The notes: generated by a model from the sequence alone, not told the origin. Counted from the first letter of the stretch, positions 11,805 through 63,414 are shown. The stretch is 64,000 nt of DNA from a virus (IMGVR_UViG_3300051215_000059), one strand, 5' to 3'. Translations and numbers: made by a program.

Positions 11805-11833
11805 TTGACAAGAGAAACGAATCGTTATATAGT
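11805..11833 (+). promoter_or_regulatory. Early promoter with spacer CGAATCG
   Basis: TTGACA-N17-TATAGT, with GAATC at 11819-11823. Confidence 0.8.
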
Positions 11834-11851
11834 CATTCTGTAATCAAGAGG

Positions 11852-12232
11852 ATGATGAACATGACGACTTGGACCTATCTCCTGAAAGCTGAACGTGGCG
11901 CAGTCAATAGCGGCAAAGACATTACTTACTTCGTCACCAAGGTTGAAGTTCATCCTCACACCCACCCGCTATACATTCAGCGTTGCATCAAAGAACAAGC
12001 CGAAAGTCTTGGACTCGGTGTGAAAGATGGTTTTTATGAAACTATGGTTTCTGCTTGGAGTGAAGATTTTGACACGATTATCGCTGAACGAGAAAAAATG
12101 ATGGCTCATTATGAGTCTCGCAAAAAAGAGTTTCCGATGTATTACTACCCTATTGTTGAAGCTCTGAAACAAATCAAAGAAGCAAAACGTATTGTAGAAG
12201 AAGGATTGATTGTAAATGCCGAAGTTCTCTGA
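11852..12232 (+). CDS. Early hypothetical protein
   Basis: GAGG RBS downstream of an early promoter. Confidence 0.7.
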   Translation: MMNMTTWTYLLKAERGAVNSGKDITYFVTKVEVHPHTHPLYIQRCIKEQAESLGLGVKDGFYETMVSAWSEDFDTIIAEREKMMAHYESRKKEFPMYYYPIVEALKQIKEAKRIVEEGLIVNAEVL

Positions 12233-12611
12233 AAATGTGATTCACACCGCCATCAACTTCATTCGGTCCATTGAGTCCGAATTGGGAAGTTTGGGACAAG
12301 ACAAAGTTTTTGCGATGCTGGACGCATTCGATCCAGAACTTCGCGATGACATTTTGATGACACTTTTCATTGAGGATGACAATCTTCCAGTGAACGTGTA
12401 TGTTCGGAAAAATCCAAACTTCACGGGGCAGTATCAGAAAATCAACGCAATCAAAGAGATTCGCGCAGCAAGTGGCTATGGCCTGAAGCAAGCAAAGGAC
12501 GTGACCGATGCCGCCGACCTGTCGCAGATTGCATTGGTTGAAGTTGTTGGATACGAAAAGAAGCGAAGCCTCATCAACGGATTGATTGGAACTGGATACG
12601 AGGTAGTCTAA
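12216..12611 (+). CDS. Protein with ribosomal bL12 (L7/L12) C-terminal-like domain
   Basis: KINAIKEIRAASGYGLKQAKDVTDAA resembles the bL12 CTD motif KIxVIKxVRxxTGLGLKEAKDLV. Confidence 0.7.
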   Translation: MPKFSENVIHTAINFIRSIESELGSLGQDKVFAMLDAFDPELRDDILMTLFIEDDNLPVNVYVRKNPNFTGQYQKINAIKEIRAASGYGLKQAKDVTDAADLSQIALVEVVGYEKKRSLINGLIGTGYEVV

Positions 12612-12612
12612 T

Positions 12613-12906
12613 ATGGGATATTCGCCAGCAGTTCCAAGTTATGTGGAGTTCATCCAAGACTTCTTTTACGCCAAGATCAAGCATAAAAAATACACAACAA
12701 AAGAAGTCTTTTGTCTGAATCCATTTCATAGGTGTCCGATTACTGGAAATCGTCAGTTTTGGAAGAAGTCACTCCGTATTCGCATCGTGGGTGAAAAAAC
12801 CACATTTATGTGCGAACAGCATCAGTTTGAGCAATATCTATTTTTGACTGATTTTGACAGTCCCCTTGGAAATAGATATGCTGCATACAAAAAAATATCC
12901 TATTGA
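12613..12906 (+). CDS. Hypothetical protein
   Basis: ORF in the operon with coupled spacing. Confidence 0.55.
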   Translation: MGYSPAVPSYVEFIQDFFYAKIKHKKYTTKEVFCLNPFHRCPITGNRQFWKKSLRIRIVGEKTTFMCEQHQFEQYLFLTDFDSPLGNRYAAYKKISY

Positions 12907-12931
12907 CATTCCAACCGAATCACTATATACA
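12903..12931 (+). promoter_or_regulatory. Early promoter with spacer CGAATCA
   Basis: TTGACA-N17-TATACA, with GAATC at 12917-12921. Confidence 0.85.
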
Positions 12932-12958
12932 TAGTCTGTAGTCAGCAAGGAGAGAGAC

Positions 12959-13288
12959 ATGACCGACACTGAACTTTTCGCCAAGATTGATGCCTTCCGT
13001 GCGGTTCAAGATCGTGAAGGTTTCTCCACTGTTTGGAGCATTCACGAAGTTACTGACATTGAAGACAAGGTTCCGTTGAAAAACCAAGTCGGTCGCAAGG
13101 TTGTTTTCAACTATTGGGATAAAAACTTCAACGATAAAAAGGTTGAAACCACCATCAAAGGTGAAACTTGGCTTGATATGTGGCGGGCCGCAAACGAACT
13201 TGTAGTGACCAGCGGCGACTTTCATATCTTTGTTGAAAACTTTGTTATGCAAGAGGACGGTTCGTTTGAACTGATTTGCGGTAGCTAA
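12959..13288 (+). CDS. Early hypothetical protein
   Basis: AAGGAGAG RBS after the promoter. Confidence 0.75.
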   Translation: MTDTELFAKIDAFRAVQDREGFSTVWSIHEVTDIEDKVPLKNQVGRKVVFNYWDKNFNDKKVETTIKGETWLDMWRAANELVVTSGDFHIFVENFVMQEDGSFELICGS

Positions 13289-13584
13289 TGACAACCAATC
13301 TCCCATTTGAAGTAAAACGCCTTGACGGGCGTTTTACTCACTTCTATAAGTATCATTTTCGATATTATCTTCATTTTGAACACTACGAAAAAAAAGTAGT
13401 AGACACGATTGAAAGCTATTTGAAATCCACATACGGTAACTCTTGGCCAGGAACGTCTTCTTGGTCTGGAAATATAAAAAGACAGGCTGGATGGGATGCA
13501 CAGTTTCCCAACAAAAAGTCTACTGCATATCGCATTTATTTGCGTGACGAAGACATGTTGAACTATGTTATGATGATTTTGTAG
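13288..13584 (+). CDS. Hypothetical protein
   Basis: TAATG coupling to the upstream ORF. Confidence 0.65.
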   Translation: MTTNLPFEVKRLDGRFTHFYKYHFRYYLHFEHYEKKVVDTIESYLKSTYGNSWPGTSSWSGNIKRQAGWDAQFPNKKSTAYRIYLRDEDMLNYVMMIL

Positions 13585-13613
13585 TTGACAAACATCTCGA
13601 ATCACTATATACA
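13585..13613 (+). promoter_or_regulatory. Early promoter with spacer CGAATCA
   Basis: TTGACA-N17-TATACA, with GAATC at 13599-13603. Confidence 0.85.
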
Positions 13614-13645
13614 TAAACAGTAGTCAGAAAGAGAGAGGAAATCAA

Positions 13646-14071
13646 ATGGCCTATATGTCTCAAGAAATGAAAAAAGAACTCGCTCCCGCTATCAAAGCTG
13701 TGCTGAAAAAGTATGGCGTGAAAGGCAGCATTTCGGTTGACCATCACTCGTCTCTGGTTGTGACCCTCAAAGAAGGTGTCCTTGACTTCATCGGTCAAGC
13801 CAATACCGACAACAAGGAAGTTGCTGAACGGCGCGGTGAGCGGTTCTACGAAGTCAAAGGCAACTATCAAGCGAATCCTTACTACGCGCATGAAAGCGGA
13901 AACAAGAAGATTGGTTCTTTCTTCAAAGAACTGGTCGCCGCTATGAATGGCAAGGGTTCTAAAGTTGCCAATCACGACAACTCCGATATTATGACCGACT
14001 ACTTTGACGTTGGGTGGTATGTCAACATCAATGTTGGTAAATGGGACAAGCCCTACGTTCTGGTAAAATGA
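13646..14071 (+). CDS. Early hypothetical protein
   Basis: GAGAGG RBS after the promoter; biased codon usage. Confidence 0.8.
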   Translation: MAYMSQEMKKELAPAIKAVLKKYGVKGSISVDHHSSLVVTLKEGVLDFIGQANTDNKEVAERRGERFYEVKGNYQANPYYAHESGNKKIGSFFKELVAAMNGKGSKVANHDNSDIMTDYFDVGWYVNINVGKWDKPYVLVK

Positions 14072-14304
14072 TGCAACCTAAACGACTTCAATGGTCCGAA
14101 TCTGGCGATGGAAAAACGATTGCTGCTCCATCGCCTTGTATCGCAGACAACTATCTTGTCATCGTTGAACGGGATGGTATGTATCATATGAACTGGACAT
14201 ATGGGCCAGTAAACACCCTTTATACTGCTAAAGCACTTGGCAGATACTTTCATGAACGTGGTCTTGCTGACCTTTACTCACAATGGCTTGAATAAGGAAA
14301 CAAA

Positions 14305-14484
14305 ATGAAATATGCTATTCTTCTGTCTGTTCTTGCTCTTTCTGCCTGTTCTGCAATGATAACGCCTGAACAGATTGAAATTCGAAACGAGCAAGATCGT
14401 CTCAATCATGAACGATACTTGCAATCGTTGTATGACCCCGAATACCTCGCTGACTGTGAATATTATGAAATGGAATGCGAATGA
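14305..14484 (+). CDS. Small lipoprotein (59 aa)
   Basis: MKYAILLSVLALSAC: signal peptide with lipobox LSAC, AAGGA RBS. Below the ORF-track length cut-off. Confidence 0.7.
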   Translation: MKYAILLSVLALSACSAMITPEQIEIRNEQDRLNHERYLQSLYDPEYLADCEYYEMECE

Positions 14485-14663
14485 TTCCAAACACTTGGAA
14501 ATATGGGGCGCTGGAAAACCGCATTCATGCGATTGATATTGCTATCAGAAATCTTTCGCATACCAAATCGCCATTGGGACGCTGGCCATCAGTGGAACAA
14601 TTGCAAAAGCTAAAATCAGAACTTCAACAAGTTCAAGATTGTATCAACGAAGCAAAAGGATAA
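14475..14663 (+). CDS. Hypothetical protein
   Basis: Overlaps the upstream stop; operon context. Confidence 0.5.
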   Translation: MRMIPNTWKYGALENRIHAIDIAIRNLSHTKSPLGRWPSVEQLQKLKSELQQVQDCINEAKG

Positions 14664-14667
14664 TATT

Positions 14668-15084
14668 ATGGGAACTCGTAGCCGTATCGCAAAAGTAAAC
14701 GAAGATGGAACTGTAAAGTCTATCTATTGCCATTGGGATGGGTATCCGTCCAATAACGGCGTTCTTCTGTTTGACAACTACCAAGACCCTGACAAGATTG
14801 ATGCTCTTTTGGCATTGGGTGATATCAGTTCTCTTGATGCCGAGATTGGAGAGAAGCATGATTTTGACAATGCACCAAAAGGTGTGGTAAACGCTTACGG
14901 TCGTGACCGTGGTGAAACCGATATCGAAGCACGTGTTGACGCTGACCTTCTTGATTTTGTTTCTAAAATCGGAGAGTCTTGGGAAGAATATTCTTATGTT
15001 TACACGCTTGATGGTGAATGGGTTTGCTATGAAGGGACGAAAGGTCCGATTCCTCTGGATGAAGCCATCAAAAAAGACTCATAA
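14668..15084 (+). CDS. Early hypothetical protein (YCHWDGYP motif)
   Basis: AAGGA RBS; MGTRSRI...YCHWDGYP. Confidence 0.75.
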   Translation: MGTRSRIAKVNEDGTVKSIYCHWDGYPSNNGVLLFDNYQDPDKIDALLALGDISSLDAEIGEKHDFDNAPKGVVNAYGRDRGETDIEARVDADLLDFVSKIGESWEEYSYVYTLDGEWVCYEGTKGPIPLDEAIKKDS

Positions 15085-15090
15085 ATGTTC

Positions 15091-15119
15091 TTGACATTTC
15101 AAAGAATCACTGTTATATC
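15091..15119 (+). promoter_or_regulatory. Early promoter with GAATC shifted by 1 nt
   Basis: TTGACA-N17-TATATC, with GAATC at 15104-15108. Confidence 0.65.
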
Positions 15120-15141
15120 AAGAACATAAGGAGAAAAAAAG

Positions 15142-15351
15142 ATGGACATGGAAACTGCAATCGCCATTCTTGGCATCAACAGAACTCGCGACAATGATCT
15201 TCGCCCTATGGTGAAAGCACTTGAACTGTTTTCTGTGCTGAACACACCAGAAGAAGTTGAACGTCTGGAAGCCGCGAAGTATGTGCTTCGTCGGTGGAAA
15301 ACATATCAGGCGGAATGTAATCTTCGCCGTAGTATGCGGGGGATTGCATAA
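15142..15351 (+). CDS. Early hypothetical protein
   Basis: AAGGAG RBS. Confidence 0.7.
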   Translation: MDMETAIAILGINRTRDNDLRPMVKALELFSVLNTPEEVERLEAAKYVLRRWKTYQAECNLRRSMRGIA

Positions 15352-15611
15352 TGATCAAAACTTCTGCACCATCTATCGAAGATTGCCTTGCAAGAAAATG
15401 GCCAGTATATGTTGCTTATCGAGAATCTGATAAAGAGATTGTCGGTTACTGGCCATTTGGTGAAACCTTTGCCCGTGAAGCTGCACAAGCACGAAACAAC
15501 AAAGAGGGTCCGCTGTCATACAATTATGCCAAGTGGGATAGGTATTTGTTTGTTCTTGAACGGCACGAAAGGCATCTGGAACAACTGGAAGAAATTTCTA
15601 GGCGACTGTAA
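15351..15611 (+). CDS. Hypothetical protein
   Basis: TAATG coupling; followed by a terminator. Confidence 0.65.
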   Translation: MIKTSAPSIEDCLARKWPVYVAYRESDKEIVGYWPFGETFAREAAQARNNKEGPLSYNYAKWDRYLFVLERHERHLEQLEEISRRL

Positions 15612-16248: not shown

Positions 16249-16656
16249 ATGAAATATCGTGTATCCGCCGCAGAACGTTGGTCGTTCTGGGAAACTTATG
16301 CAGTAAAGAACGCCAATGATGTGGTCATCGAGTTGGAGATTTGTTGCAAGTATGGTTCAATTATTGTTGACGTTCCAGAAGGATATGAGTTCGGAGAATC
16401 GTTCAGCACCGATGAATTTGATAGCGACCAATATCAAATCGAAGAAACGGGCGATGAAAGCCTTGAAGGTTGGGATATTTTTGGACTATCTGACGAAGAA
16501 GAACAAAAACTTCGTGAGGAACTTGAAGCACAATATGATCCAGAAAGTGATGATTACTACGATTTCCGAGAGTATCTTGAACTAAACGGTTGGGAGTTCA
16601 CGGATTACAGTGTCAGCATTCCCTCAATTGAGGTAGAACCTTATCCATATGAGTGA
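16249..16656 (+). CDS. Acidic hypothetical protein
   Basis: AAGGA RBS before ATG 16249. Confidence 0.65.
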   Translation: MKYRVSAAERWSFWETYAVKNANDVVIELEICCKYGSIIVDVPEGYEFGESFSTDEFDSDQYQIEETGDESLEGWDIFGLSDEEEQKLREELEAQYDPESDDYYDFREYLELNGWEFTDYSVSIPSIEVEPYPYE

Positions 16657-17452
16657 TATAATCCAAGAGGATTGTATCTTGGGAATGAAGAAGCTGGACG
16701 CAGAATCTATTGATATCTGCGTCACTTCCCCTCCATATAATCTAAACATTCAATATGGACAATACAAAGACAACCAACCAAGAGAGAATTACCTTTCATG
16801 GTTGAATGACGTATTTGTAGAAGTCAAGCGAGTTCTCAAACCAAACGGTCATTTCTTTCTCAACATGGGATATTCTAATATTGACCCTTGGGTCGGAATG
16901 GATGTTGCAAATGTGGCAAGGTCGCATTATGTTTTGCAAAATAACATCACATGGGTAAAGAGTATATATGTAGATGGCAAAACATCTGGCCACTTCAAGC
17001 CAATCAACAGCAAAAGATTTTCCAATCCAACTTGGGAACACTTATTTCATTTCACCAAGAAAGGTGATGTAGAAGTAGATAAGTTGGCGGTTGGCGTTCC
17101 ATACGAATGGAAATCAAATATTGAACGCTTTGACCAAGCGGGAGACTTGCGATGCAGGGGAAACACATGGTTTGTTCCATACGATACCATTGCCAACAGA
17201 AAGAAGCATCGTGGCAACCATCCAGCTACGTTTCCAGTTGAGTTGGTTGAAATGTGCATAAAGTTTTCTGGTGTGAAATCTGGAACGTTGCTTGACCCGT
17301 TTATGGGTTCTGGGACATCTGCAATTGCTGCTATGAAATGTCACATAGAATATATTGGATACGAGATTGATTCCGATTATTTTTTGTTTGCAAATGATAG
17401 AATCATGGAGTATAACATGTCTAAACCGTCATCACTGATTGAGATTCTATAA
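16649..17452 (+). CDS. DNA N4-cytosine/N6-adenine methyltransferase (beta class)
   Basis: Motif IV VTSPPY, HPATFP, motif I LDPFMGSGT. Confidence 0.9.
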   Translation: MSDIIQEDCILGMKKLDAESIDICVTSPPYNLNIQYGQYKDNQPRENYLSWLNDVFVEVKRVLKPNGHFFLNMGYSNIDPWVGMDVANVARSHYVLQNNITWVKSIYVDGKTSGHFKPINSKRFSNPTWEHLFHFTKKGDVEVDKLAVGVPYEWKSNIERFDQAGDLRCRGNTWFVPYDTIANRKKHRGNHPATFPVELVEMCIKFSGVKSGTLLDPFMGSGTSAIAAMKCHIEYIGYEIDSDYFLFANDRIMEYNMSKPSSLIEIL

Positions 17453-18118: not shown

Positions 18119-18769
18119 ATGAAACAAGTAAATGAAGCTGAAATATGCCAATACTATCTTGAACATTTGGTGAGTTTGCGGGATGTTTCCCGTGCGTATG
18201 AGATTGATCATCATCGAGTGAAACGTATATTGACTGATGGCGGGGTGTATGATAGTCAACGAAAAGTTCCGTCTGTTCGTGATCCTTCTGCTACGAAGAA
18301 GGGTGTAGAAACCAGAAAACGCAACGGGTCTTATATCGCACACAACAAAGGGAAACAAGCATCAGAAGATCAACGGCGTTTGAATATGAAAGCTAAGATG
18401 AAAACTGGAATAGACTTGTCGGTATATGAAGATTACGATAGACTGCTATTTCTGACCAGATACTTGGCGAAACACAAGACATATTTTGATTCTGACGAAA
18501 AAAGAAAATCGTTTCTGGATAAGTTTTATGTTGACGAGCAGTTCCTAATGATATACAATGTCTGGATACAAGATAAAGAAAACAAATGGCTGCGTCCTTC
18601 GTTGGACCATAAAACCCCAAAAAGTGTGGGCGGATCATTTGACTTGGAAAATCTACAGTTTTTGACTTGGTTTGAAAACCGAGCGAAAGCTGACATGTCC
18701 GAAGAAGAATGGAAGTTATTCAAGGACACAACTAACACCGAATCAGATTACTTTATAAGGAAACAATAA
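18119..18769 (+). CDS. HNH endonuclease
   Basis: RPSLDHKTPKSVGG...ENLQFLTWFENRAK. Confidence 0.8.
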   Translation: MKQVNEAEICQYYLEHLVSLRDVSRAYEIDHHRVKRILTDGGVYDSQRKVPSVRDPSATKKGVETRKRNGSYIAHNKGKQASEDQRRLNMKAKMKTGIDLSVYEDYDRLLFLTRYLAKHKTYFDSDEKRKSFLDKFYVDEQFLMIYNVWIQDKENKWLRPSLDHKTPKSVGGSFDLENLQFLTWFENRAKADMSEEEWKLFKDTTNTESDYFIRKQ

Positions 18770-19540
18770 TGGATAAGGAGAGCAATGTAGGGCAACAGTT
18801 TTCGCTTTATAACGAAGACTGCTTGGTCGCATTGAGTCGTGTCCCCGATAAGTCGGTGGATATGATTCTTTGTGACTTGCCCTATGGTTAGCACCACAGC
18901 ATGTGCTTGGGATTTCATCATTCCCATGGATAAACTATGGGAACATTACTATCGGGTATGCAAGAAGAACGCCGCTATGGTGTTCACTGCATCACAACCA
19001 TTTACAACTACTCTAATTTCATCTAACTTGAAAGACTTTCGTTATGAATGGATTTGGGAAAAACCGCAAGGAACCAATCCAATGAACGCAAAGGTTATGC
19101 CGCTAAAGTCACATGAAAATGTGTTAGTGTTCTATCGTGAGAAACCAACCTATAACCCACAAATGTGGTATAGCACTCCATATGGTGGCTTCAAGAGTGA
19201 CACATCAAAGATTGGCGAAGTATATGGTTCTGCCAAATCACAGCATCGCGACAATCCAGATGGGTCACGATATCCAAGAACTGTTCAAAAGTTCAAGCAA
19301 GAGAAGGGCTTTCATCCAACACAGAAGCCAGTGGAAATGATGGAATACTTCATCAAAACTTACTCTAATAAGGGTGAGACTATTCTTGATAACACAATGG
19401 GTTCTGGAACAACTGGTGTTGCTGCGGTCAAGTTGGGACGTAACTTTATTGGTATGGAACAAGAAGCTAAGTATTTTGAGATTGCTAAAACTCGTATTGA
19501 CGAGGTAAAGGAAGAGACAAAGTTTTTTGACTTTGAGTAA
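18769..19540 (+). pseudogene. Beta-class DNA methyltransferase interrupted by a stop and frameshift after motif IV
   Basis: 18769-18891 encodes ...MILCDLPYG then TAG. Continuation TTACAWD...HPTQKP...DNTMGSGTTG lies in the +1 frame. Confidence 0.75.
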
Positions 19541-21669: not shown

Positions 21670-21698
21670 TTGACATTCCCAACGAATCGAGATATACA
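21670..21698 (+). promoter_or_regulatory. Early promoter with spacer CGAATCG
   Basis: TTGACA-N17-TATACA, with GAATC at 21684-21688. Confidence 0.85.
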
Positions 21699-21724: not shown

Positions 21725-22009
21725 ATGAACGTAGCCACCATCATTCGTGACCAAATTCGTGCTCTTGACCGCCGCGCCTTTATGGCATGGGGTGCAAAAG
21801 ATTTTGTTGGTATGGGCGATGGATTGAAGTTCAAAACTTCTGGTCTGGTCAAATGGAAAGGCTACGTCTACATCAAGTATGACGAAGGTATGGACCTTTA
21901 CAACGTTCAGTTCGCCCGTATCCGAAACCTTGACTGGAAGGTTGACAAAGAGGTAAACGGCGTGTATGCCGAAGACCTCGTTGGCATTATCGACGGTCAA
22001 GTCGGTTAA
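21725..22009 (+). CDS. Early hypothetical protein
   Basis: GAGGG RBS after the promoter. Confidence 0.75.
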   Translation: MNVATIIRDQIRALDRRAFMAWGAKDFVGMGDGLKFKTSGLVKWKGYVYIKYDEGMDLYNVQFARIRNLDWKVDKEVNGVYAEDLVGIIDGQVG

Positions 22010-22196: not shown

Positions 22197-22225
22197 TTGA
22201 CATTCCTGACGAATCACTGTATACA
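22197..22225 (+). promoter_or_regulatory. Early promoter with spacer CGAATCA
   Basis: TTGACA-N17-TATACA, with GAATC at 22211-22215. Confidence 0.85.
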
Positions 22226-22255: not shown

Positions 22256-23242
22256 ATGCAGATTGCCCACATTGAAAACGGTTCGTATAACAACCAACCG
22301 ATTTCTGGTTCGTTTCCTTTGGTGCAGGGTTTGAAACCTTCTGCCAAGGGCGGGTTTTTCATTACGGTTGATGCTTCTGACAGTGCAGTCAAGAAGCCCA
22401 AGATTCGTATTCGTGTTGAATCGGAAGATGACGTTTCGATTGATGGTGAAGCGGGCGAAACTGCCTGTGTGACTGAAAGTGACGAAGAAGCGATTGAACG
22501 TATTGCTGAACGTTTCAAAATTCTTGATGATATGACGGGCGCTACCATTGATGGTGTCGTGCGTGGCATGGTCGTTTCTGGACCTCCCGGCGTTGGTAAA
22601 ACCTATGGTGTGGAACAGGTTCTTGAGCAAGACTCGTTGTTTGACATTATGGCTGACCGTCCCCTGCGCCACACGTTTGTGAAGGGAACCATGTCGCCCA
22701 TCGGTCTGTATTCCACGCTTTACAAATACAGCGATGAAAAGAATATCGTGGTGCTTGATGACTGCGACTCCATCCTGTTCAACGAAGATGCTTTGAATAT
22801 TCTCAAAGCTGCTCTGGACAGTGGCAAGAAGCGTAAAATCTCTTGGCACTCGGACTCTCACTTTTTGCGCCGCGAGGGGGTTCCTGACCAATTTGAGTTC
22901 AAAGGTTCGGTCATCTTCATCACCAACTTGAAGTTTGACAAGGTGAAATCCTCCAAAATCAAGGACCACCTTGAAGCAATCATGTCGCGTTGCCACTATC
23001 TGGATTTGACCATCAGCACGACTCGTGACAAACTCCTGCGGTGCAAACAGATTGTCCGTCAAGGTATGCTGAATTCCTACGGTTTCTCGGACCAAGAACA
23101 ACATGAGATTATGTCCTATATGGAAGTCAACCAATCTCGTCTGCGTGAAATCTCTCTCCGTATGATCACCAAGATTGCTGACCTTCGCAAAGCGATGCCG
23201 CAATCTTGGGAACGGACTGCCAACCTGACTTGCTGCAAGTAA
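22256..23242 (+). CDS. AAA-type ATPase
   Basis: Walker A GPPGVGKT, Walker B VVLDDCD, AIMSR. Confidence 0.85.
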   Translation: MQIAHIENGSYNNQPISGSFPLVQGLKPSAKGGFFITVDASDSAVKKPKIRIRVESEDDVSIDGEAGETACVTESDEEAIERIAERFKILDDMTGATIDGVVRGMVVSGPPGVGKTYGVEQVLEQDSLFDIMADRPLRHTFVKGTMSPIGLYSTLYKYSDEKNIVVLDDCDSILFNEDALNILKAALDSGKKRKISWHSDSHFLRREGVPDQFEFKGSVIFITNLKFDKVKSSKIKDHLEAIMSRCHYLDLTISTTRDKLLRCKQIVRQGMLNSYGFSDQEQHEIMSYMEVNQSRLREISLRMITKIADLRKAMPQSWERTANLTCCK

Positions 23243-23291: not shown

Positions 23292-23345
23292 CTATTGAAA
23301 TCAAAGACTTATTATGGTATATTATATGAAACGTTGAGGGTATAC

Positions 23346-24797
23346 ATGAAAAAATGTAAAATAGTAATCAAAGATGAGGTAAACATAAAGTTGGATGGGC
23401 TTGACCCATCAACCAGACGTAAGTGCTCAGACAAATTGAAGTTCTTTCTTCCCCATGCTTTCCACACCCCTGCCTATAAACTTGGCAGATGGGATGGAAC
23501 AGTTCGGTTCTGTGACGTGGGCGGTAGAACATATCTGAACCTTTTGGATGATATTGTTCCTATTATTGTAGATGCTGGCTATGAGTTTGAGATTGAAGAC
23601 AATCGTATGAACCATGGCACTCTGGAATTTGACCAGATTGCAGAAGACTATTGGGGCGACAAGACATGGCCAAAAGGACATAAGCATGAGGGCGAACTTA
23701 TTCGTCTGCGTGACTACCAAGTAGAAATCATCAACAAGTTCATTGAGAACCCACAGGCATTACAGGAAGTCGCCACTGGCGCTGGTAAGACCATTATGAC
23801 TGCCACCATGGCGAGTATGGTAGAAAAGCATGGTAGGTCAATCGTAATCGTTCCAAACAAAGACCTTGTGAAACAAACCGCTAAGGATTATGAAAACTGC
23901 GGGTTGGATTATGGTGTTTATTTTGGTGACAAGAAAGACATAGGAAAGACTCATACTGTTTGCACTTGGCAATCATTGAACTCGCTATTGAAGCAAACCA
24001 AGGAAGGCAAAGCTGATATACAAGACTTCATTGATGGCGTGGTATGTGTTATCGTAGATGAAGTCCATCAGGCAAAAGCAGACGTTCTGAAGGAACTTCT
24101 GACTGGTGTATTTGCGAATGTCCCATTGCGTTGGGGACTTACTGGAACCATTCCGAAAGGCGAGTGGGATGTAGCGTCAATCAACGCAAGTCTTGGTAAG
24201 GTTATTCACCAGTTGAGTGCAAAGACTCTGCAAGACGAAGGCGTATTGTCTAAATGTCACGTAGAGATTATACAAACGCAAGAAACGGCTGAGTATAATA
24301 ACTATCAATCAGAACTCAAGTTTCTGCTGGAAGATGCGAAACGTGCCGATTACATGGCACAGAAGATTATGGAAATCTCAAATACAGGCAACACGCTTGT
24401 TCTTGTAGACCGTTTGGCGGCTGGTAATGCGTTGATAGAACGGCTTCCACTAGGAACGGTATTTGTCAGTGGCAAGATGAAAACTGATGACCGCCAAAAT
24501 GAATATGATGAAATCAATCAGTCTATTAACAGCATTACGGTTGCCACATATGGGGTTGCTGCGGTGGGCCTCAACATTCCACGAATATTCAATCTGGTTA
24601 TGATTGAACCAGGAAAATCGTTTGTTCGGGTAATTCAGTCTATTGGGCGTGGTGTTCGGACAGCGAAAGACAAAGACTTTGTTCAGATATGGGACTTCAC
24701 AAGTCGGTGTAAGTTCAGTAAGCGTCATTTGACGGAACGAAAGAAATATTATGCCGATGCAGAGTATCCCTATCGTGTCAACAAAGTTACTTACTAA
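23346..24797 (+). CDS. uvsW: SF2 DNA helicase UvsW
   Basis: LRDYQ, ATGAGKT, DEVH, GLTGT, QSIGRGVR. Confidence 0.9.
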   Translation: MKKCKIVIKDEVNIKLDGLDPSTRRKCSDKLKFFLPHAFHTPAYKLGRWDGTVRFCDVGGRTYLNLLDDIVPIIVDAGYEFEIEDNRMNHGTLEFDQIAEDYWGDKTWPKGHKHEGELIRLRDYQVEIINKFIENPQALQEVATGAGKTIMTATMASMVEKHGRSIVIVPNKDLVKQTAKDYENCGLDYGVYFGDKKDIGKTHTVCTWQSLNSLLKQTKEGKADIQDFIDGVVCVIVDEVHQAKADVLKELLTGVFANVPLRWGLTGTIPKGEWDVASINASLGKVIHQLSAKTLQDEGVLSKCHVEIIQTQETAEYNNYQSELKFLLEDAKRADYMAQKIMEISNTGNTLVLVDRLAAGNALIERLPLGTVFVSGKMKTDDRQNEYDEINQSINSITVATYGVAAVGLNIPRIFNLVMIEPGKSFVRVIQSIGRGVRTAKDKDFVQIWDFTSRCKFSKRHLTERKKYYADAEYPYRVNKVTY

Positions 24798-30529: not shown

Positions 30530-30566
30530 CTTGACTTTTCGGCTCCAATGATATATATTGGTGAGT

Positions 30567-44346: not shown

Positions 44347-45069
44347 ATGCGTATTGATGAAGTATTAAATCGTCGTCTTGAAGAGGGGGTTGACGATCCT
44401 CATATTTTCAAAGCACTATTTTTGGCTGGTGGCCCCGGTTCTGGAAAAAGTTATGTCTCTGGTAAAATGACAGGACAAAAGCACGTCAGAACTGGATTGA
44501 AGGTTGTAAACTCGGATGACATGTATGAGTATCTAATGGGCAAGGAAGGCATGGAAATGTCTCCTGACAATATCTTTAGTCCAAAAGGACAGGAGTTACG
44601 CCAACGTGCAAAAGAACTCACCAAGAGCCGCGAACAAATTTATACTGATGGGCGTCTTGGGCTAATCATTGATGGAACTGGTAAGGACGTAGACAAAGTT
44701 CGTGTCCAAAAAGAAAAGTTGGAAGAACTTGGGTATGACACGATGATGCTATTCATCAACACAAGTGAAGATATTGCTATTGCACGTGATGCGTCTCGTG
44801 AACGTTCGGTTGGTGCGAAAGAAGTTTCAAAAATGTGGAAATCGGTTCAAGATAATATTATGAAATTCCAACAGCTATTTGGTGCAAAAGACTTTCACGT
44901 TGTTGACAACTCTGGTGGCCTAGAAGATACTGACCGTGCTGATGAGTTTGCAAAAGTTGAATTAAATATTGACAAATTCCTAGCCACGCCACCACGAAAG
45001 CCACAGGCCAAGAAATGGATTCGTGCAGCAAAAGAAATCAAATCAAACGACCAGACACTTGACATTTGA
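44347..45069 (+). CDS. P-loop kinase (zeta-toxin/AAA_33-like)
   Basis: FLAGGPGSGKS, VVNSDD, LIIDGTG; late promoter at 44317. Confidence 0.8.
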   Translation: MRIDEVLNRRLEEGVDDPHIFKALFLAGGPGSGKSYVSGKMTGQKHVRTGLKVVNSDDMYEYLMGKEGMEMSPDNIFSPKGQELRQRAKELTKSREQIYTDGRLGLIIDGTGKDVDKVRVQKEKLEELGYDTMMLFINTSEDIAIARDASRERSVGAKEVSKMWKSVQDNIMKFQQLFGAKDFHVVDNSGGLEDTDRADEFAKVELNIDKFLATPPRKPQAKKWIRAAKEIKSNDQTLDI

Positions 45070-45096
45070 TTGTCAGTATGGTATAAAGGCTATTAA

Positions 45097-46757: not shown

Positions 46758-47681
46758 ATGAAATTCAATGGGAACGTATTGGTTACTGGCGGCGCAGGGT
46801 TCGTCGGCAAGCACGTGGTAAGGAAGTTACAGTTAGAAGGATATAACGTAACTGTAATAGACCTGAAACCGCAACCAGATGACTTACAATTTGTTACATA
46901 CATTCAGGGTGACATTGTAGATATATCATCTTGTTTGACTGCTTGTGAAGATCAAGATTATGTTATACATATTGCCGCCAAGGCAAGAATACCAGAAAGT
47001 TTCACAAATCCAAGTGCATACTTTTTGAATAACGTAGTTGGCACACAGAACTTACTGGCGGCGGCGGCAGCTAAAAAAGTAAAAAAGGTGATATACGCAA
47101 GCAGTTCGAGTGTATACGGAAACCATCCAACACCAAACAAGCCATACCATAAACCAAATCCTCTGAACTATTATGCTATGACTAAGTTGTTCGGTGAACA
47201 TTTGTGTAAGCAGTTTCGTAATCTTTATGGGTTGGAATATACCATACTGAGACTGTTTACTGTATATGGTGATGGCCAACCGAATGATGATTCAAACGGT
47301 CTTATGATTTCAAAGTTTGCTCGGATGGCAGTAGAAGGAACCCCACTCACAGTTCATGGGGATGGTTCGGCAAGACGGGATTTCATCCATGTGTATGATG
47401 TTGCCAATGCGTTTTATGTTGCGATGAAAAGCAAGGTGAAAAACGAAGTGTTCAACGTAGGAACAGGAGAAAACATTTCTGTCAACGAAGTGGTTGACAT
47501 ATTGAAATCTTATGTAACTGACCTAAATATAAATCAGGTGTCCAATCCAAAAGGATATGCTACCACAACATTGGCTGACATATCAAAGATACGAAAGCTG
47601 ACGGGGTGGAAGCCAACTATCATGCCCGCCGATGGGATTTCTCTATTTTATTATGACTTGTTTAGTCAGAAAATACATTGA
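46758..47681 (+). CDS. NAD-dependent epimerase/dehydratase (extended SDR)
   Basis: GGAGFVG, ASSSSVYG, YAMTK, RDFIHV; late promoter at 46728. Confidence 0.92.
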   Translation: MKFNGNVLVTGGAGFVGKHVVRKLQLEGYNVTVIDLKPQPDDLQFVTYIQGDIVDISSCLTACEDQDYVIHIAAKARIPESFTNPSAYFLNNVVGTQNLLAAAAAKKVKKVIYASSSSVYGNHPTPNKPYHKPNPLNYYAMTKLFGEHLCKQFRNLYGLEYTILRLFTVYGDGQPNDDSNGLMISKFARMAVEGTPLTVHGDGSARRDFIHVYDVANAFYVAMKSKVKNEVFNVGTGENISVNEVVDILKSYVTDLNINQVSNPKGYATTTLADISKIRKLTGWKPTIMPADGISLFYYDLFSQKIH

Positions 47682-47738
47682 CTTTAGGCAATATGTATGA
47701 TATAAATATAGCATGTATTCTATTCAGAAAGATGAGTA

Positions 47739-55734: not shown

Positions 55735-55765
55735 TTGACATTCCAAGACGAATCGTGTATAAATA
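55735..55765 (+). promoter_or_regulatory. Composite sigma70/late promoter of tmRNA, with GAATC
   Basis: TTGACA-N17-TATAAA overlapping TATAAATA; GAATC at 55750-55754. Confidence 0.7.
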
Positions 55766-55769
55766 GTAT

Positions 55770-56085
55770 TGTAATCGTTGAAGCAGACGATAGACATTCT
55801 GGACCTGGGGGCAGTACCCAGCGGGTCCACCACAGATACATTCCTACAGGAATCTGATCAATTCTGGGTTGGTTCCACACCGTGCAAGAGGAACTGAGTG
55901 TATCTTTGATGGGCTCGAAATAGGATCGACAGGTGTTGAAAGCAAGTGGAGATTACCGTGTTGGCCTACGTTATTCAGCCAAAAAACTAAATGCAAACGA
56001 AAACTTTGCTCCTGTAGCTTACGCACTAGCTGCCTAATCTACTTGGGTGGGTCACCTACCTCGAAACAGAAACGGTGACACTCAC
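55770..56085 (+). ncRNA. ssrA: Circularly permuted two-piece tmRNA
   Basis: Acceptor piece: T-arm CTGGG-GGCAGTA-CCCAG then CGGGTCC-ACCA (ends 55832). Coding piece starts GGGCTCG at 55911 (G3:U70 pair). Tag ANENFAPVAYALAA* at 55993-56037. Outer ends are approximate. Confidence 0.92.
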
Positions 56086-60177: not shown

Positions 60178-60196
60178 TAAAATCAGCAACTAAAAC

Positions 60197-60223
60197 AAAA
60201 AGTCGCCTTCGGGCGACTTTTTT
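60197..60223 (+). terminator. Intrinsic terminator, UUCG loop
   Basis: AAAAAGTCGCC-TTCG-GGCGACTTTTT. Confidence 0.85.
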
Positions 60224-60305
60224 ATTGACAATCAATGACTTATTTGATATAAATATAGAAATAGTTGACGAGCAACTATTTTATACACACACAGAAATGG
60301 AGAAA

Positions 60306-60632
60306 ATGATGAACGATTATGCAAAACAAATGCAAGAGTTTATGACACAGATGACTGAGGCAATGACTTCAGCTATGCCAAAAGTAAAGCCAAACAAGAA
60401 TGGCTACGAGATTCGCACCAAGGTTCTTGAAATCGCAAAAGATATGGAACAGTTTGAATACAGTGTAAAGTTCAATGGGTGGGAACAAACCGTTGAGCGT
60501 GACACTTCAACTGGACAGATTATCACAACTGTAAAAATGCCAGAAGTCCCAAGTGCAGACAAAGTTTTGGAAACTGCGCAAAAGTTCTACGACTTCATCA
60601 ACAACGCATCGTCAGGCAAAAAAAGCTCTTGA
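60306..60632 (+). CDS. Hypothetical protein (KNGYEIR motif)
   Basis: GGAG RBS; TTGACA (60225)/TATAAATA (60248) promoter. Confidence 0.7.
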   Translation: MMNDYAKQMQEFMTQMTEAMTSAMPKVKPNKNGYEIRTKVLEIAKDMEQFEYSVKFNGWEQTVERDTSTGQIITTVKMPEVPSADKVLETAQKFYDFINNASSGKKSS

Positions 60633-60945
60633 CGAATCACCCAGAATAGGGTATATTGAATAAATAATAAGGCAATATAAAACACACTGAATATGTTGCC
60701 TTATTTGTAAAAACACTAAAACTTACTTATATCGGATATGGACCCTGCTTTTTCATTCTATATCATTATAACATAGACTTTATATAGTATTGGTTCGGTC
60801 ACTGACTTTCATACCGAATAACAGAGTGAAAAATCTAAATTTTCAATAGATTTGAACTTTTATATAGCAAACTTAGTAATCTAACAATAAGAAAAGCCGA
60901 GATACTGGACGCAGTATTCTCGGTTTTTCTACCTACGGAGAATAA

Positions 60946-61101
60946 ATGAAAAAGTATTGGATGGTGTGCCTTGGGCGTATAAGTTTTGATGTTGTGTTGG
61001 CAACCACCGCCGATGAAGCAATTGCTAACATAAGAGAACGGTTTGGCGATGAAACCAACTACATTTATTTTGAAAAATATCGTGCCTTTCTTATAGAATA
61101 G
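60946..61101 (+). CDS. Small hypothetical protein (51 aa)
   Basis: GGAG RBS. Confidence 0.5.
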   Translation: MKKYWMVCLGRISFDVVLATTADEAIANIRERFGDETNYIYFEKYRAFLIE

Positions 61102-61103
61102 TG

Positions 61104-61132
61104 TTGACTTCCTCTGCGAATCGATATATACA
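61104..61132 (+). promoter_or_regulatory. Early promoter with spacer CGAATCG
   Basis: TTGACT-N17-TATACA, with GAATC at 61118-61122. Confidence 0.85.
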
Positions 61133-61162
61133 TATCATGTAGCCAAGAGAGAGGAAATCACT

Positions 61163-61630
61163 ATGGGCCGTTCAGTTTCTTATCCTTCTAATACCGCTGC
61201 TGTTTGCTTCCGCGATGTATCCAGCTTCGGGTATGTGATGGACGAAGATGGTGTTGTCACTGACGAATACGATGAGTGGCAGGGCCGTGACGACTGGGAT
61301 TGGTTTGTTGAAAGCATCAAGAATGACGCGACCGAAAAGTGGTCTTCGTTCTCTGAATGTGACGAATGGGTTGGTCGTGAAGACCGTGCCATTCTTGAAA
61401 ATAACTTCGCTTACATCGGCGTGAGCGAATACTGTGGCCTTGCTGCGGTGTGGCTGTTACCCAAAACTGAAGCACTGTTGAACACTGGTTACAGCGAAGA
61501 TGCTGCGATGGCAAACCTTTCTGAAAACTGGTGCAAACGGATTGCCAAAAACTTTGAAAAGCTGTTTGGTGAGTATGTCAAAGTTGCCGTGATGAGCAAC
61601 GGCGAAGGTGTTTACAAAAAAGTGGCGTAA
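61163..61630 (+). CDS. Early hypothetical protein
   Basis: GAGAGG RBS. Confidence 0.75.
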   Translation: MGRSVSYPSNTAAVCFRDVSSFGYVMDEDGVVTDEYDEWQGRDDWDWFVESIKNDATEKWSSFSECDEWVGREDRAILENNFAYIGVSEYCGLAAVWLLPKTEALLNTGYSEDAAMANLSENWCKRIAKNFEKLFGEYVKVAVMSNGEGVYKKVA

Positions 61631-61663
61631 TGGTGCGCCACGTAACTTATCTTGAGGATTAGA

Positions 61664-61972
61664 ATGAAAGAACTACTTATTGGTGTATCTGCCGTTGTCG
61701 GCATTGGTCTACTAACATGGGGCGGAATCTATGTGAATGGATTCTTCAACGCAGAACGTGAAGCACAACGAACAAAAGTGTTTCAAGAATCGCAAGCATA
61801 CAATGATGGTATGCGTCTGCAACTGAATAACCAGTGTATTGAATACGACAAGGCTGATGCGGCTGGTCGTGTTGGAATCAAGAATATGGTTCAGGATACT
61901 TTCGCATCACTTGATACTTCTGATTATCCCGCTCATCTTCAACAATGCCTTCGGAACATGGGAGTTCGCTAA
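61664..61972 (+). CDS. Membrane-anchored hypothetical protein
   Basis: N-terminal transmembrane helix. Confidence 0.7.
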   Translation: MKELLIGVSAVVGIGLLTWGGIYVNGFFNAEREAQRTKVFQESQAYNDGMRLQLNNQCIEYDKADAAGRVGIKNMVQDTFASLDTSDYPAHLQQCLRNMGVR

Positions 61973-62511
61973 TGAAAAATCTTCTTGCCGCCATTCTTCT
62001 TGTCGCATCTGCATCAGTTGCAAATGCTGGATGGTTTGATGTTGAACCGCCTTCATCGGACGAAGCTGTTTCTGAGCAGATGGAAAAGCTGCTAAAAGAA
62101 GGTGAGCGTCAAACTGGACTTCCTGCTATCACTAACTTCACCGAAAAGCGTATGGTGAAATGGCTGTATGAGTTGCGTGACCAGCCAAACTATCGCACAT
62201 ACACATATATTGTCACCATGAATGGACAACTTATCAAGATTTGCGACTCTGTTGGTTACGGCATCAATGCCTCCATTCAGTATAGCAATCCTGAAAAGGT
62301 TGTTGACTACGAAGAATTTATTGGTGACCGTATTGACGCACATGTTGGGACACTTCCACAAGCTGAACCTAACGGTCTGTTCATGCCAGAAGGTCTTGCC
62401 GCCACCTACGTCATGTGTGTGGATGGCGATAAAGAAGACGTGAAAGCGGTTTACCTTGAACCCGAAATCATCGTGTCACCGTTCCCACTTGACAGTGTAA
62501 ACGGACAATAA
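61972..62511 (+). CDS. Exported hypothetical protein
   Basis: Signal peptide MKNLLAAILLVASASVANA; LPQAEPNGLF. Confidence 0.75.
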   Translation: MKNLLAAILLVASASVANAGWFDVEPPSSDEAVSEQMEKLLKEGERQTGLPAITNFTEKRMVKWLYELRDQPNYRTYTYIVTMNGQLIKICDSVGYGINASIQYSNPEKVVDYEEFIGDRIDAHVGTLPQAEPNGLFMPEGLAATYVMCVDGDKEDVKAVYLEPEIIVSPFPLDSVNGQ

Positions 62512-62512
62512 G

Positions 62513-62538
62513 AAAAAGAGGCTTCGGCCTCTTTTTTT
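62513..62538 (+). terminator. Intrinsic terminator, UUCG loop
   Basis: AAAAAGAGGC-TTCG-GCCTCTTTTT. Confidence 0.85.
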
Positions 62539-62540
62539 AT

Positions 62541-62569
62541 TTGACAATCCCTACGAATCACGATATACA
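62541..62569 (+). promoter_or_regulatory. Early promoter with spacer CGAATCA
   Basis: TTGACA-N17-TATACA, with GAATC at 62555-62559. Confidence 0.85.
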
Positions 62570-62596
62570 TATTCTGTAGTCAGCAAGGAGAGACAA

Positions 62597-62884
62597 ATGA
62601 CGAAACCCGCTCGTAAAACGATTGAAGTTGGTAAGGTTCTGCGTATGGCGAACCATTTTCTCGCCGCAAAAAATACCACTGCTGATGAGCGGGAAGGTGT
62701 TTGCTCGTTGATCGAAGCGATGCTTTTTGAGTCTGGCAACTATAACGGCTTCTGCTATTTGCCCTCAAAAGACTATCCCAATGAGGTTGATGGTCTTGGT
62801 TCTCGTCGTTTCTACTATCCTTCGCGCACGATTGTTGAGGACCACGATGCCGACCTTCGCAACGTCAACAAAATTCGTGTGTAA
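62597..62884 (+). CDS. Early hypothetical protein
   Basis: AAGGAGAG RBS. Confidence 0.75.
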   Translation: MTKPARKTIEVGKVLRMANHFLAAKNTTADEREGVCSLIEAMLFESGNYNGFCYLPSKDYPNEVDGLGSRRFYYPSRTIVEDHDADLRNVNKIRV

Positions 62885-62890
62885 AAGGTC

Positions 62891-62919
62891 TTGACAATCC
62901 CCGCGAATCACTATATACA
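62891..62919 (+). promoter_or_regulatory. Early promoter with spacer CGAATCA
   Basis: TTGACA-N17-TATACA, with GAATC at 62905-62909. Confidence 0.85.
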
Positions 62920-62948
62920 TATCCTGTAAGCAAGAGAGAGGAAATCAG

Positions 62949-63158
62949 ATGCGTAACGTGACTATCACTCCCGAACTGGTTGATGTTGATGTGTGCTACG
63001 GTGATTACGATGGTTTCATTACCAAGACGACTTGGGTGGTTGAAATGTTTGAGGGTAAAGAACAGGTCACCACGATGTTCTTGAAAACTGAAGAGTTTGC
63101 AAAAGAAGCTGCCGACAAATTCATTCGCCTTGGCCTGTGCGCCTTTGGCTATTGCTGA
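62949..63158 (+). CDS. Early hypothetical protein
   Basis: GAGAGG RBS. Confidence 0.7.
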   Translation: MRNVTITPELVDVDVCYGDYDGFITKTTWVVEMFEGKEQVTTMFLKTEEFAKEAADKFIRLGLCAFGYC

Positions 63159-63180
63159 AATCAAGATAGGAGAGAACACT

Positions 63181-63378
63181 ATGGCTTGGAATCGTGAAGG
63201 TGATTTTGTCGCTGGCAACTATATGGGTATCTTTCCCTATGCTGGCAAGATTTCTGAATCTCGTGTGAAGTATGGTGGCAAGGTCCAGCATACGGTGAAA
63301 CTCCTGTCTGCCATCAACGTGTTTGGTGACGTGCGGGATACGATTTTGGTTGATGAAGACGAACTGGTTGTTGTGTAA
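63181..63378 (+). CDS. Early hypothetical protein
   Basis: AGGAG RBS before ATG 63181. Confidence 0.65.
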   Translation: MAWNREGDFVAGNYMGIFPYAGKISESRVKYGGKVQHTVKLLSAINVFGDVRDTILVDEDELVVV

Positions 63379-63385
63379 ACAGTTC

Positions 63386-63414
63386 TTGACTTTCTACTCG
63401 AATCACTATATACA
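63386..63414 (+). promoter_or_regulatory. Early promoter with spacer CGAATCA
   Basis: TTGACT-N17-TATACA, with GAATC at 63400-63404. Confidence 0.85.

Follow-up and report, generated by a model that had tools for sequence, protein, structure and literature searches.

GcrA and CcrM form the best-studied epigenetic transcription module of bacteria. GcrA is an alphaproteobacterial cofactor that sits on domain 2 of sigma-70, while its tethered DNA-binding domain grips GANTC sites with YGAKTCK flanks, and to our knowledge no phage uses this module. In T4, the activator MotA works through sigma-70 as well, at promoters where the MotA box replaces the -35 element and is read by phage proteins. In T4-type phages, PeSL (promoter-early stem-loop) cassettes are recognised by the recombination that occurs between them, and no box is conserved in their spacer.

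The GcrA-activated sigma-70 promoters of Caulobacter crescentus, such as PcsM, depend on the sigma-70-bound cofactor, which makes up for weak core elements (Haakonsen 2015, PMC4647560; Wu 2018, PMC5887438; Wu 2023, PMC9976885). The GcrA motif was published as YGAKTCK, with TGATTCG as its best form (Haakonsen et al., PMC4647560), and the centre of a GcrA box falls at -20 +/- 1 (within the spacer), at -30 +/- 2, or at +5 to +30 from the start (PMC9976885). In alphaproteobacterial phages, CtrA-binding sites (TTAA-N7-TTAA) have been described as clustered in one region, and a GcrA matrix run over phage genomes in the same work gave no signal (Mascolo 2022, PMC9437464). A further reference point is PA5oct, a jumbo phage of Pseudomonas whose transcription relies on host polymerase, from promoters with plain TTGAC and TATAATA elements (Lood 2020, PMC7318152).

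The DNA studied here is a window of 64,000 nucleotides from a 113-kb contig of a jumbo phage (IMGVR_UViG_3300051215_000059), where a set of promoters carries a GANTC box in the spacer. As in the PcsM type of Caulobacter, the box has YGAKTCK/G flanks, a centre near -20 and GAATC on the non-template strand, but it is viral, lies ~1 bp closer to the -10, sits in AT-rich DNA, is invariably GAATC and recurs in at least a dozen promoters of each genome; GcrA dependence and methylation, known from the Caulobacter promoters, would be putative traits of the phage ones. An extra conserved core-promoter box sets a phage class in the middle promoters of T4 too (MotA box, AsiA-remodelled sigma-70), whereas the present phage combines a perfect -35 TTGACA with a spacer box for which no phage reader was found. 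With PeSL cassettes it shares repeated promoter-leader units before small ORFans, some with a hairpin upstream, but here the spacer box is conserved and a clear terminator hairpin precedes just three of the nine exact copies of the window. Phages with CtrA sites (PMC9437464) likewise have viral expression wired to a host cell-cycle regulator, which is CtrA in their case and would be GcrA, as a candidate, in ours. Finally, PA5oct belongs to the same broad clade (DnaB ~53% identical) and has TTGAC and TATAATA elements, but it lacks the spacer box and infects a gammaproteobacterium, a difference that was counted for reading by GcrA.

Two promoter classes in the phage genome

The pattern TTGACW-N7-CGAATCR-N3-TATA has exactly nine matches in the window, all on the + strand and at the positions of the preliminary description, whose claims of a fixed spacer position, a preceding C and a following purine hold for every one of them. 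The enrichment over a shuffled background that it proposed as a check was also borne out, 100 dinucleotide-preserving shuffles of the window giving 0 matches (0 expected). Across the whole contig there are 12 exact sites, every one on the gene strand, and 0 matches to the reversed control pattern. When the pattern is relaxed to TTGACN-N16-18-TAnA, the + strand of the window has 27 sites, and a GANTC falls within the spacer in 11 of them, at an offset of 8 (n=9), 7 (n=1) or 9 (n=1).

The first exact promoter (11805..11833; TTGACA, CGAATCG, -10 TATAGT) follows a terminator hairpin and precedes a 126-aa ORF (11852-12232). Those at 12903..12931 and 13585..13613, both with CGAATCA, lie before the ORFs 12959-13288 and 13646-14071, and that at 21670..21698 (CGAATCG) before the ORF 21725-22009, while the promoter at 22197..22225 (CGAATCA) leads into the genes of an AAA ATPase (22256-23242) and a ResIII/DEAD helicase (23295-24797). 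The remaining four are found at 61104..61132 (CGAATCG; ORF 61163-61630), 62541..62569 (CGAATCA, with a terminator hairpin before; ORF 62597-62884), 62891..62919 (CGAATCA; ORF 62949-63158) and 63386..63414 (CGAATCA; ORF 63445-63786). Two variants, shifted by 1 nt, read as previously claimed: at 15091..15119 (+) the box AGAATCA is 1 nt farther from the -10 (TATATC) and heads a block containing both DNA methyltransferase genes, and at 55735..55763 (+), in the promoter of the tmRNA gene, CGAATCG is 1 nt nearer the -10 (TATAAA). The genes downstream of box promoters are mostly small ORFans, plus the tmRNA, and it is these ORFans that suggest an early timing of the class. Within this genome the conserved unit is longer, TTGACW..CGAATCR..TATACATA..CTGTAG.CAAGAGAGAGGAAA..ATG, comprising promoter, start site, leader and ribosome site, and the resulting 70-nt promoter-leader cassette is similar between copies.

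As also anticipated, most -10 elements lack the last T: the hexamer is TATACA, with no T at -7, in eight of the nine exact promoters, and a generic sigma-70 scanner demanding the -7 T recovers 11805 alone among the box promoters. The TTGAC promoters put forward as an internal control are indeed devoid of the box. They lie on the + strand at 10670..10698 (TTGACA), 30531..30559 (TGn extended -10, TGATATATT, with a primase/helicase block downstream), 45059..45087 (TGn, TGGTATAAA), 47678..47706 (previously 47679; TGn, TGATATAAA, with a radical-SAM operon downstream) and 60225..60253 (TGn, TGATATAAA).

The box promoters are one of two promoter classes in this phage. Among the candidate promoters of this contig (G000) and two further genomes (G001 and G002), a T at -7 is present in 3/13, 0/15 and 4/17 of those with the box, respectively, and in 5/9, 25/34 and 9/16 of those lacking it. 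The TGn element occurs in 34 of 59 box-less promoters (7/9, 18/34 and 9/16) and in none of the 45 with the box; the possibility that the latter are of the extended -10 type was discarded, with TG at -15/-14 in 0/45. Such an architecture, with a deficient -10 and TGn absent, is of the activator type and was counted for reading by GcrA. In four genomes, 48 box promoters conserve TTGACA, the box, TATA and a start-site GTA and nothing else; flanks and leader have diverged between genomes around an invariant box, which is a single asymmetric half-site showing neither dyad nor repeat. Moreover, YGATTCG is depleted on the gene strand outside promoters (O/E 0.36 in G000, and again in G001). This depletion and the conservation across genomes suggest that selection acts on the box itself.

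Comparison with the GcrA box

On the template strand, YGATTCG is found in all 12 exact copies and in the 55735 variant, whereas the 15091 variant has TGATTCT, which is still YGAKTCK; in sequence, the phage box fits the published GcrA motif. With the start predicted from the -10 register, CGAATCR extends from about -22 to -16 and GAATC from -21 to -17, with its centre at about -19, a position that would agree with the -20 +/- 1 of GcrA boxes. The register can be checked at the tmRNA gene, where the predicted transcript start (~55770), 7 nt past the -10 of its promoter, coincides with the base at which the covariance-model match begins. As for the strand, the PcsM scaffold used for cryo-EM reads TTGACA-N7-GAATC-N5-TATAAT on the non-template strand and the phage arrangement is TTGACW-N8-GAATC-N4-TATA, with GAATC on the non-template strand in all copies, so that the phage box has the same strand as in the GcrA-RNAP-promoter complex and lies 1 bp closer to the -10. 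The opposite orientation forms no multi-copy promoter class in IMG/VR. A detail counted against GcrA is the middle base of the box: GcrA reportedly tolerates C there as well as A (K = G/T on the other strand), but the phage box has A without exception.

The tmRNA itself (55770..56080, +) is a two-piece (permuted) molecule of the alphaproteobacterial type (RF01849, 114.8 bits; RF04321, 121.1 bits). Its tag, ANENFAPVAYALAA, resembles the ANDNFAPVAVAA of an alphaproteobacterial genome of low GC in which GcrA is encoded too; the cofactor is present in eight of the ten alphaproteobacterial genomes examined, and RF01849 alpha_tmRNA was detected in all seven large box-bearing contigs tested, one of them T4-like. 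These are hints at an alphaproteobacterial host, but a tmRNA of this type is no proof of it, because Melnitz, which infects betaproteobacterial OM43, carries the same. The identification of the box as a GcrA site stands in part: published motif, position, strand, deficient -10 and alpha-type tmRNA speak for it, whereas the tmRNA marker is shared with Melnitz and none of nine cultured phages has the box, including the five from alphaproteobacterial hosts (Cr30, Atu_ph07, Phosso, HTVC008M and PAU), whose lack of the motif counts against reading by GcrA.

Distribution among phages

We found no published description of this phage box motif, yet the exact pattern is present in at least 115 IMG/VR stretches, many of them multi-copy. 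When both gaps are left unconstrained, N7/N3 outnumbers every other arrangement by a wide margin; N3 dominates the distance from box to -10, flanked by shoulders at N2 and at a spacer of 16 nt. The variants CGASTCR, which cover twice the sequence space, give 68 single matches in a complete IMG/VR scan. The box-bearing contigs belong mostly to the same jumbo-phage clade as this phage, with which proteins are common at 24 of the 25 multi-copy loci, so that a clade-specific phage factor would explain the distribution almost as well as GcrA. One contig (G411) comes from a T4-like lineage and has 54 ORFs in common with the jumbo clade. The small proteins common to it and the jumbo contigs are PAAR, SNase, Hsp20, S21, a PD-(D/E)XK nuclease, a zeta-toxin-like kinase, LPD29 and an M15 peptidase, plus one 86-aa protein matching no family.

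Candidate readers of the box

Motif, position, strand, the existence of two promoter classes and their conservation across diverged phages are direct observations, from which we infer GcrA as the reader. Its docking is the best reading of the box promoters, and we give it about an even chance. These would be host sigma-70-type promoters of an activator-dependent class, where RNA polymerase would bind a consensus -35 TTGACA and a weakened -10 (TATACA/TATAAC/TATAAA; TGn absent, -7 T usually missing), and the spacer CGAATCR would be a docking site on the DNA face that points away from the polymerase. The best candidate to occupy this site is the GcrA of the host, which would compensate for the poor -10 and allow strong expression of the small ORFans and the tmRNA by the host polymerase alone.

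A different reader is possible though somewhat unlikely: a host protein other than GcrA, or a phage protein that enters with the DNA or is expressed from the box-less TGn promoters, would define a phage-specific temporal class, like the T4 middle promoters read by MotA. The origin of 24/25 multi-copy loci in one broad clade would be accounted for, as would the strictly kept A in the middle of the box and its absence from cultured alphaproteobacterial phages; the box-less promoters, with their full consensus, could be the first to fire, and with 54 ORFs common to G411 and the clade a reader gene could be common as well. However, the small proteins that they have in common offered no candidate, the genes that follow box promoters resemble early ORFans, and the coincidence with the consensus, strand and position of GcrA would have to be chance (~16/16,384 heptamers x ~3/11 spacer positions). 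That no extra protein is needed, the element being touched by host polymerase or sigma, or setting the spacer geometry, and thereby offsetting the weak -10, is improbable. The fixed distance to the -10 (N3 dominant, N2 and 16-nt spacer shoulders) and the mutual exclusion with TGn, the other known spacer-proximal element, fit this idea, but we know of no case where sigma-70 recognises seven specific bases at -22 to -16 by contact, and in other promoters the box is 2-3 bp farther upstream, which is easier to reconcile with a tethered reader than with a rigid contact.

Even less probable is an operator through which a phage or host repressor shuts the promoters off. The box overlaps the core promoter and its 7-mer is avoided elsewhere in the genome, as often for strong binding sites, but a single asymmetric half-site free of dyad or repeat, paired with a weak -10, is a signature of activation, not repression. 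Finally, mobile promoter cassettes are known from T4-type phages, and the whole 70-nt cassette is alike from copy to copy in this genome, as would be expected of a functionless box hitchhiking in a promoter-leader unit spread by duplication and recombination. We hold this to be very improbable, given that between genomes flanks and leader diverged around an invariant box, that the exact 7-mer sits at one offset in 45/115 candidate TTGACW-N17-TAnA promoters of three genomes, and that it is depleted outside promoters.

If GcrA is the reader, this would be the first virus to have built a promoter class on a methylation-reading sigma-70 cofactor of its host. The box would then allow alphaproteobacterial hosts to be assigned from sequence alone in a large group of uncultured jumbo phages, and its promoters, as strong, compact and natural GcrA-box promoters, would provide a simple in vitro test system. 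Should GcrA not be the reader, the box is still a hitherto undescribed regulatory element, seven invariant base pairs of the spacer that set apart one of two classes of promoters in many phages.

Methylation and methyltransferases

The phage may borrow the epigenetic machinery of its host, as the sequence, strand and position of the box suggest. A wider proposal, where in a large uncultured aquatic phage group (jumbo and T4-like) the host GcrA-sigma-70 holoenzyme is the obligatory reader of a promoter class gated by the GANTC-adenine state on incoming or replicating DNA, and tied to the host CcrM/GcrA cell-cycle clock, seems doubtful to us. A role of methylation at the box promoters is thus to be regarded as tentative, and their shut-off through methylation dilution, as advanced in the preliminary description, as speculation; in published binding data, methylation changes GcrA affinity just 1.4- to 1.7-fold (PMC4647560).

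The suggested search for phage-encoded gcrA or ccrM gave no homologue in the contig or in a 92%-complete relative. For the GcrA family (PF07750), a six-frame HMM search in which Caulobacter, the positive control, scores gave no match at E <= 1 here and none at E <= 0.1 in five other large contigs related to this one. CcrM orthologues, taken as those above the NCBIfam equivalog cut-off of 830 bits or at least with a full-length strong match, were absent from this contig, the best score among related contigs being 97 bits, and G001, the 92%-complete relative, had no match at all; virion GANTC methylation has therefore no evident source except a cell-cycle-limited host enzyme.

Two beta-class DNA methyltransferase genes of the phage were rejected as CcrM orthologues, one at 16649..17452 (+) with an SPPY motif (74 bits versus the cut-off of 830) and another at 18769..19540 (+) with a DLPY motif (64 bits versus 830), the latter broken by a +1 frameshift near 18889. 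GANTC is depleted (O/E 0.64-0.86), but other palindromes are avoided far more strongly, and the T4-like contig has no such depletion.

Box promoters in the phage contig and its relatives

The promoter sequence TTGACW-N7-CGAATCR-N3-TATA was recovered at the nine window positions of the preliminary description (11805, 12903, 13585, 21670, 22197, 61104, 62541, 62891 and 63386), always on the gene strand and never in 100 shuffles, and the full IMG/VR virus contig (G000, 113 kb) holds 12 copies against none of the reversed control pattern. The two copies displaced by 1 nt (15091 and 55735) and the five TTGAC promoters lacking the CGAATCR box (10670, 30531, 45059, 47679 and 60225) also read as described there. 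The observation of the box promoters is solid, and broader than initially reported. Regarding GcrA, the alphaproteobacterial sigma-70 cofactor proposed as reader of the box, no report of its boxes in phage promoters was found in the literature searched, and a scan of phage genomes with a GcrA matrix gave no signal (Mascolo 2022, PMC9437464). A further TTGAC promoter-like site at 60629-60657 shows GAATC directly abutting the -35 (TTGACGAATCAC...), close to the second reported position of the GcrA box (-30 +/- 2).

A completeness of 31% (CheckV) at 113 kb implies that G000 comes from a jumbo phage, with a GC content of about 40% and almost all genes on the same strand. Its DnaB-type helicase shows 50-53% identity to those of Pseudomonas phage PA5oct, Sinorhizobium phage Phosso and Agrobacterium phage Atu_ph07, and megablast with 20 kb of this DNA gave no matches. 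Two larger related contigs, G001 (IMGVR_UViG_3300027757_000397; 342 kb, 92% complete) and G002 (155 kb), were used for comparison. G001 encodes 28 tRNAs, among them one with anticodon CTA (132737-132811, minus strand), a tRNA-Pyl according to ARAGORN and a possible amber suppressor.

Within G000 the conserved unit is longer than the promoter, which is followed by TATACATA, then by CTGTAG where transcription is predicted to start, and further by a leader rich in purines and a ribosome site. Among 48 box promoters from four genomes, conservation is confined to TTGACA, the box, TATA and, at the start site, a GTA, with flanks and leaders varying between genomes. Such a divergence around a preserved box argues that the box is under its own constraint, rather than being just the passenger of a recently copied cassette. 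Moreover, the full 7-mer is depleted away from promoters (O/E 0.36 in both G000 and G001), which is more telling than the depletion of GANTC as such.

Two classes of promoters

Candidate TTGACW-N17-TAnA promoters of G000, G001 and G002 fall into two classes. A TGn extended -10 never occurs in the box promoters of these three contigs, whereas it is found in 7/9, 18/34 and 9/16 of the box-less ones, respectively; similarly, a T at position -7 is present in 3/13, 0/15 and 4/17 box promoters against 5/9, 25/34 and 9/16 box-less ones. A generic sigma-70 scanner requiring this T detects just one of the five box promoters between 11.5 and 24 kb. Activator-dependent promoters classically look like this, with a perfect -35, a defective -10 and one more conserved element. 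Judging from these sequence features, the box marks an activator-type class of promoters across a large group of uncultured phages.

The genes downstream of box promoters are mostly small ORFans; the tmRNA gene and those of an AAA ATPase and a helicase are also among them, a content that is compatible with an early class and no proof of it. One small ORF of a box-driven unit (12216-12611) weakly matches the ribosomal protein L7/L12 C-terminal domain, with 27.7 bits at a cut-off of 25.9.

Occurrence among phages

The exact motif was found in at least 115 IMG/VR stretches with GC contents of 32-45% and varied leaders, many of them holding 2-4 copies, whereas G or C variants of the middle base gave just 68 single matches in a complete IMG/VR scan covering twice the sequence space, which is roughly chance level. 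With the box turned round, so that the top strand reads YGATTCG, the IMG/VR matches listed comprise a few single-locus families repeated over near-identical contigs, and no multi-copy promoter sets were seen among them. When both gaps were left free, the N7/N3 arrangement dominated, with N8/N2 and N6/N3 shoulders and a smaller group 2-3 bp upstream, in a pooled count that the first scan had partly biased. Of the 25 multi-copy loci, 24 have proteins in common with G000 or G001, so that the carriers are for the most part members of a single broad jumbo clade. Four box promoters, these with good -10 elements, occur in a T4-like contig (G411, 145 kb, 95% complete) whose gp5 shows 42% identity to that of Methylophilales phage Melnitz. 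One exact box promoter is also present in a microvirus-like circular contig of 5.9 kb (L017, IMGVR_UViG_3300048022_000342), where a major head protein is encoded along with a replication initiator.

A related sequence, CGAGTCR, occupies the identical spacer offset in promoter families of other phage contigs (GC 37-50%; loci L369, L371, L374, L377, L384 and L423, and L380, L382, L397, L415, L420, L429 and L430), together with a TGn extended -10. By its sequence, CGAGTCR forms a second spacer box that contains GANTC, in seemingly unrelated promoters.

The candidate reader of the box

The methylation site preferred by GcrA is TGATTCG, or more broadly YGAKTCK (Haakonsen et al., PMC4647560), and sites in GcrA-regulated promoters are either narrowly centred around -20 or scattered over +2 to +30 (PMC4647560); in the spacer, the position of the GcrA box is -20 +/- 1 (Wu et al., PMC9976885). 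The match to this motif claimed in the preliminary description holds, as every copy in this phage has TGATTCG or CGATTCG on its template strand. Compared with the cryo-EM scaffold, which reads TTGACA-N7-G(m6A)ATC-N5-TATAAT on the non-template strand (PMC9976885), the phage TTGACW-N8-GAATC-N4-TATA has its box on the identical strand, 1 bp nearer to the -10. The register of the -10 is backed by the tmRNA gene, whose covariance-model match starts at 55770, 7 nt past the -10 of the 55735 promoter. As a match of sequence, strand and position it is specific: about 16 of the 16,384 heptamers would fit, at about 3 of the 11 offsets in the spacer. To our knowledge, no factor other than GcrA sits on sigma-70 domain 2 and at the same time docks at -20 in the spacer. 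Docking of GcrA would be the best single explanation for the box promoters, with a chance of being right that we consider about even.

The main rival, which we regard as rather unlikely, is that the box is read by another factor, either phage-encoded or a different host protein. A phage as small as L017 cannot plausibly carry its own activator gene, and a search for a reader protein shared by the phages gave no candidate. In a comparison meant to show whether TTGAC-N7/8-CGAATCR is enriched in Alphaproteobacteria but not in Gammaproteobacteria, 301 genomes of the former held about 200 matches and about 79 of the reversed-pattern control (ratio 2.5), and 201 genomes of the latter about 247 and about 126 (ratio 2.0), all tallied by hand; the ratios are too alike to separate the two groups, and the control is evidently imperfect. 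One of the 247 comes from an unpublished genome (G453), on which no other result depends. The full motif gave only single matches dispersed over many bacterial phyla, and therefore no clue to the host, and a search with the AMP-binding enzyme gave no pointer to host taxa either. The motif was absent from the nine cultured phages examined (Atu_ph07, Phosso, PA5oct, Cr30, HTVC008M, PAU, S-PM2, KVP40 and Melnitz), five of which infect alphaproteobacterial hosts, including Caulobacter phage Cr30, and only chance matches arose when a cassette was compared by BLAST with 50,697 phage records.

Methylation and the proposed early switch

The preliminary description had proposed that host or phage GcrA reads methylation on the early promoters, in a switch that shuts off as replication dilutes the methylation. 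Neither a gcrA nor a ccrM homologue was found in the contigs examined: six were searched for the GcrA gene, no CcrM-like enzyme was detected in G001, and the two methyltransferases of the window scored 74 and 64 bits against the equivalog of CcrM, the GANTC-specific methyltransferase (cut-off 830). GANTC methylation of the phage DNA would thus need the CcrM of the host, an enzyme that in model organisms is present only briefly per cell cycle (PMC4647560). Moreover, the preference of GcrA for methylated DNA is a modest 1.4- to 1.7-fold (PMC4647560), so that the box could function unmethylated and a sharp dilution switch finds no support. Taken jointly, reading by GcrA plus a methylation-gated, self-extinguishing early switch seems improbable.

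GANTC is depleted (O/E 0.75, 0.64 and 0.86), with no such depletion in G411. We rejected this as CcrM-specific evidence and read it as general restriction avoidance, because G000 avoids other palindromes far more strongly and G411 lacks the effect. GTAC occurs 11 times in G000 against 334 expected (O/E 0.03), followed by CCGG (0.13), TTAA (0.26), GATC (0.31) and TCGA (0.33), whereas G001 avoids CTGCAG, AGATCT, GTGCAC and AAGCTT instead, which points to distinct restriction pressures on close relatives. The second methyltransferase gene of the window (18769-19540) is split by a +1 shift at about 18889. Its N-terminal part, 40 codons that finish with the catalytic DLPYG, occupies one frame and the remainder the shifted one, which may reflect a programmed shift, an error of assembly or decay to a pseudogene.

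The tmRNA and hints about the host

The tmRNA gene lies under a box-class promoter (55735-55770), with the RNA start of the covariance model at the predicted start site, and would share its regulatory class with the small ORFan genes. With 114.8 bits for RF01849, this tmRNA belongs to the two-piece alphaproteobacterial type, a family found in each of the seven large contigs with box promoters that were tested, in one of them slightly below the cut-off. Its tag ANENFAPVAYALAA is similar to ANDNFAPVAVAA of an alphaproteobacterial genome of low GC in which GcrA is encoded as well. Both features would hint at an alphaproteobacterial host, and only hint, because Melnitz, which infects a betaproteobacterial OM43 strain and lacks box promoters, also has an alpha-type tmRNA (L366, 45973-46446; 106.7 bits). 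In 401 alphaproteobacterial genomes, BLAST matches to the tmRNA reached no further than its universally conserved arms (<=86% over about 50 nt), and hence no close donor was identified. Directly after the Melnitz tmRNA there is a match to the glutamine riboswitch aptamer (RF01739, 52.8 bits).
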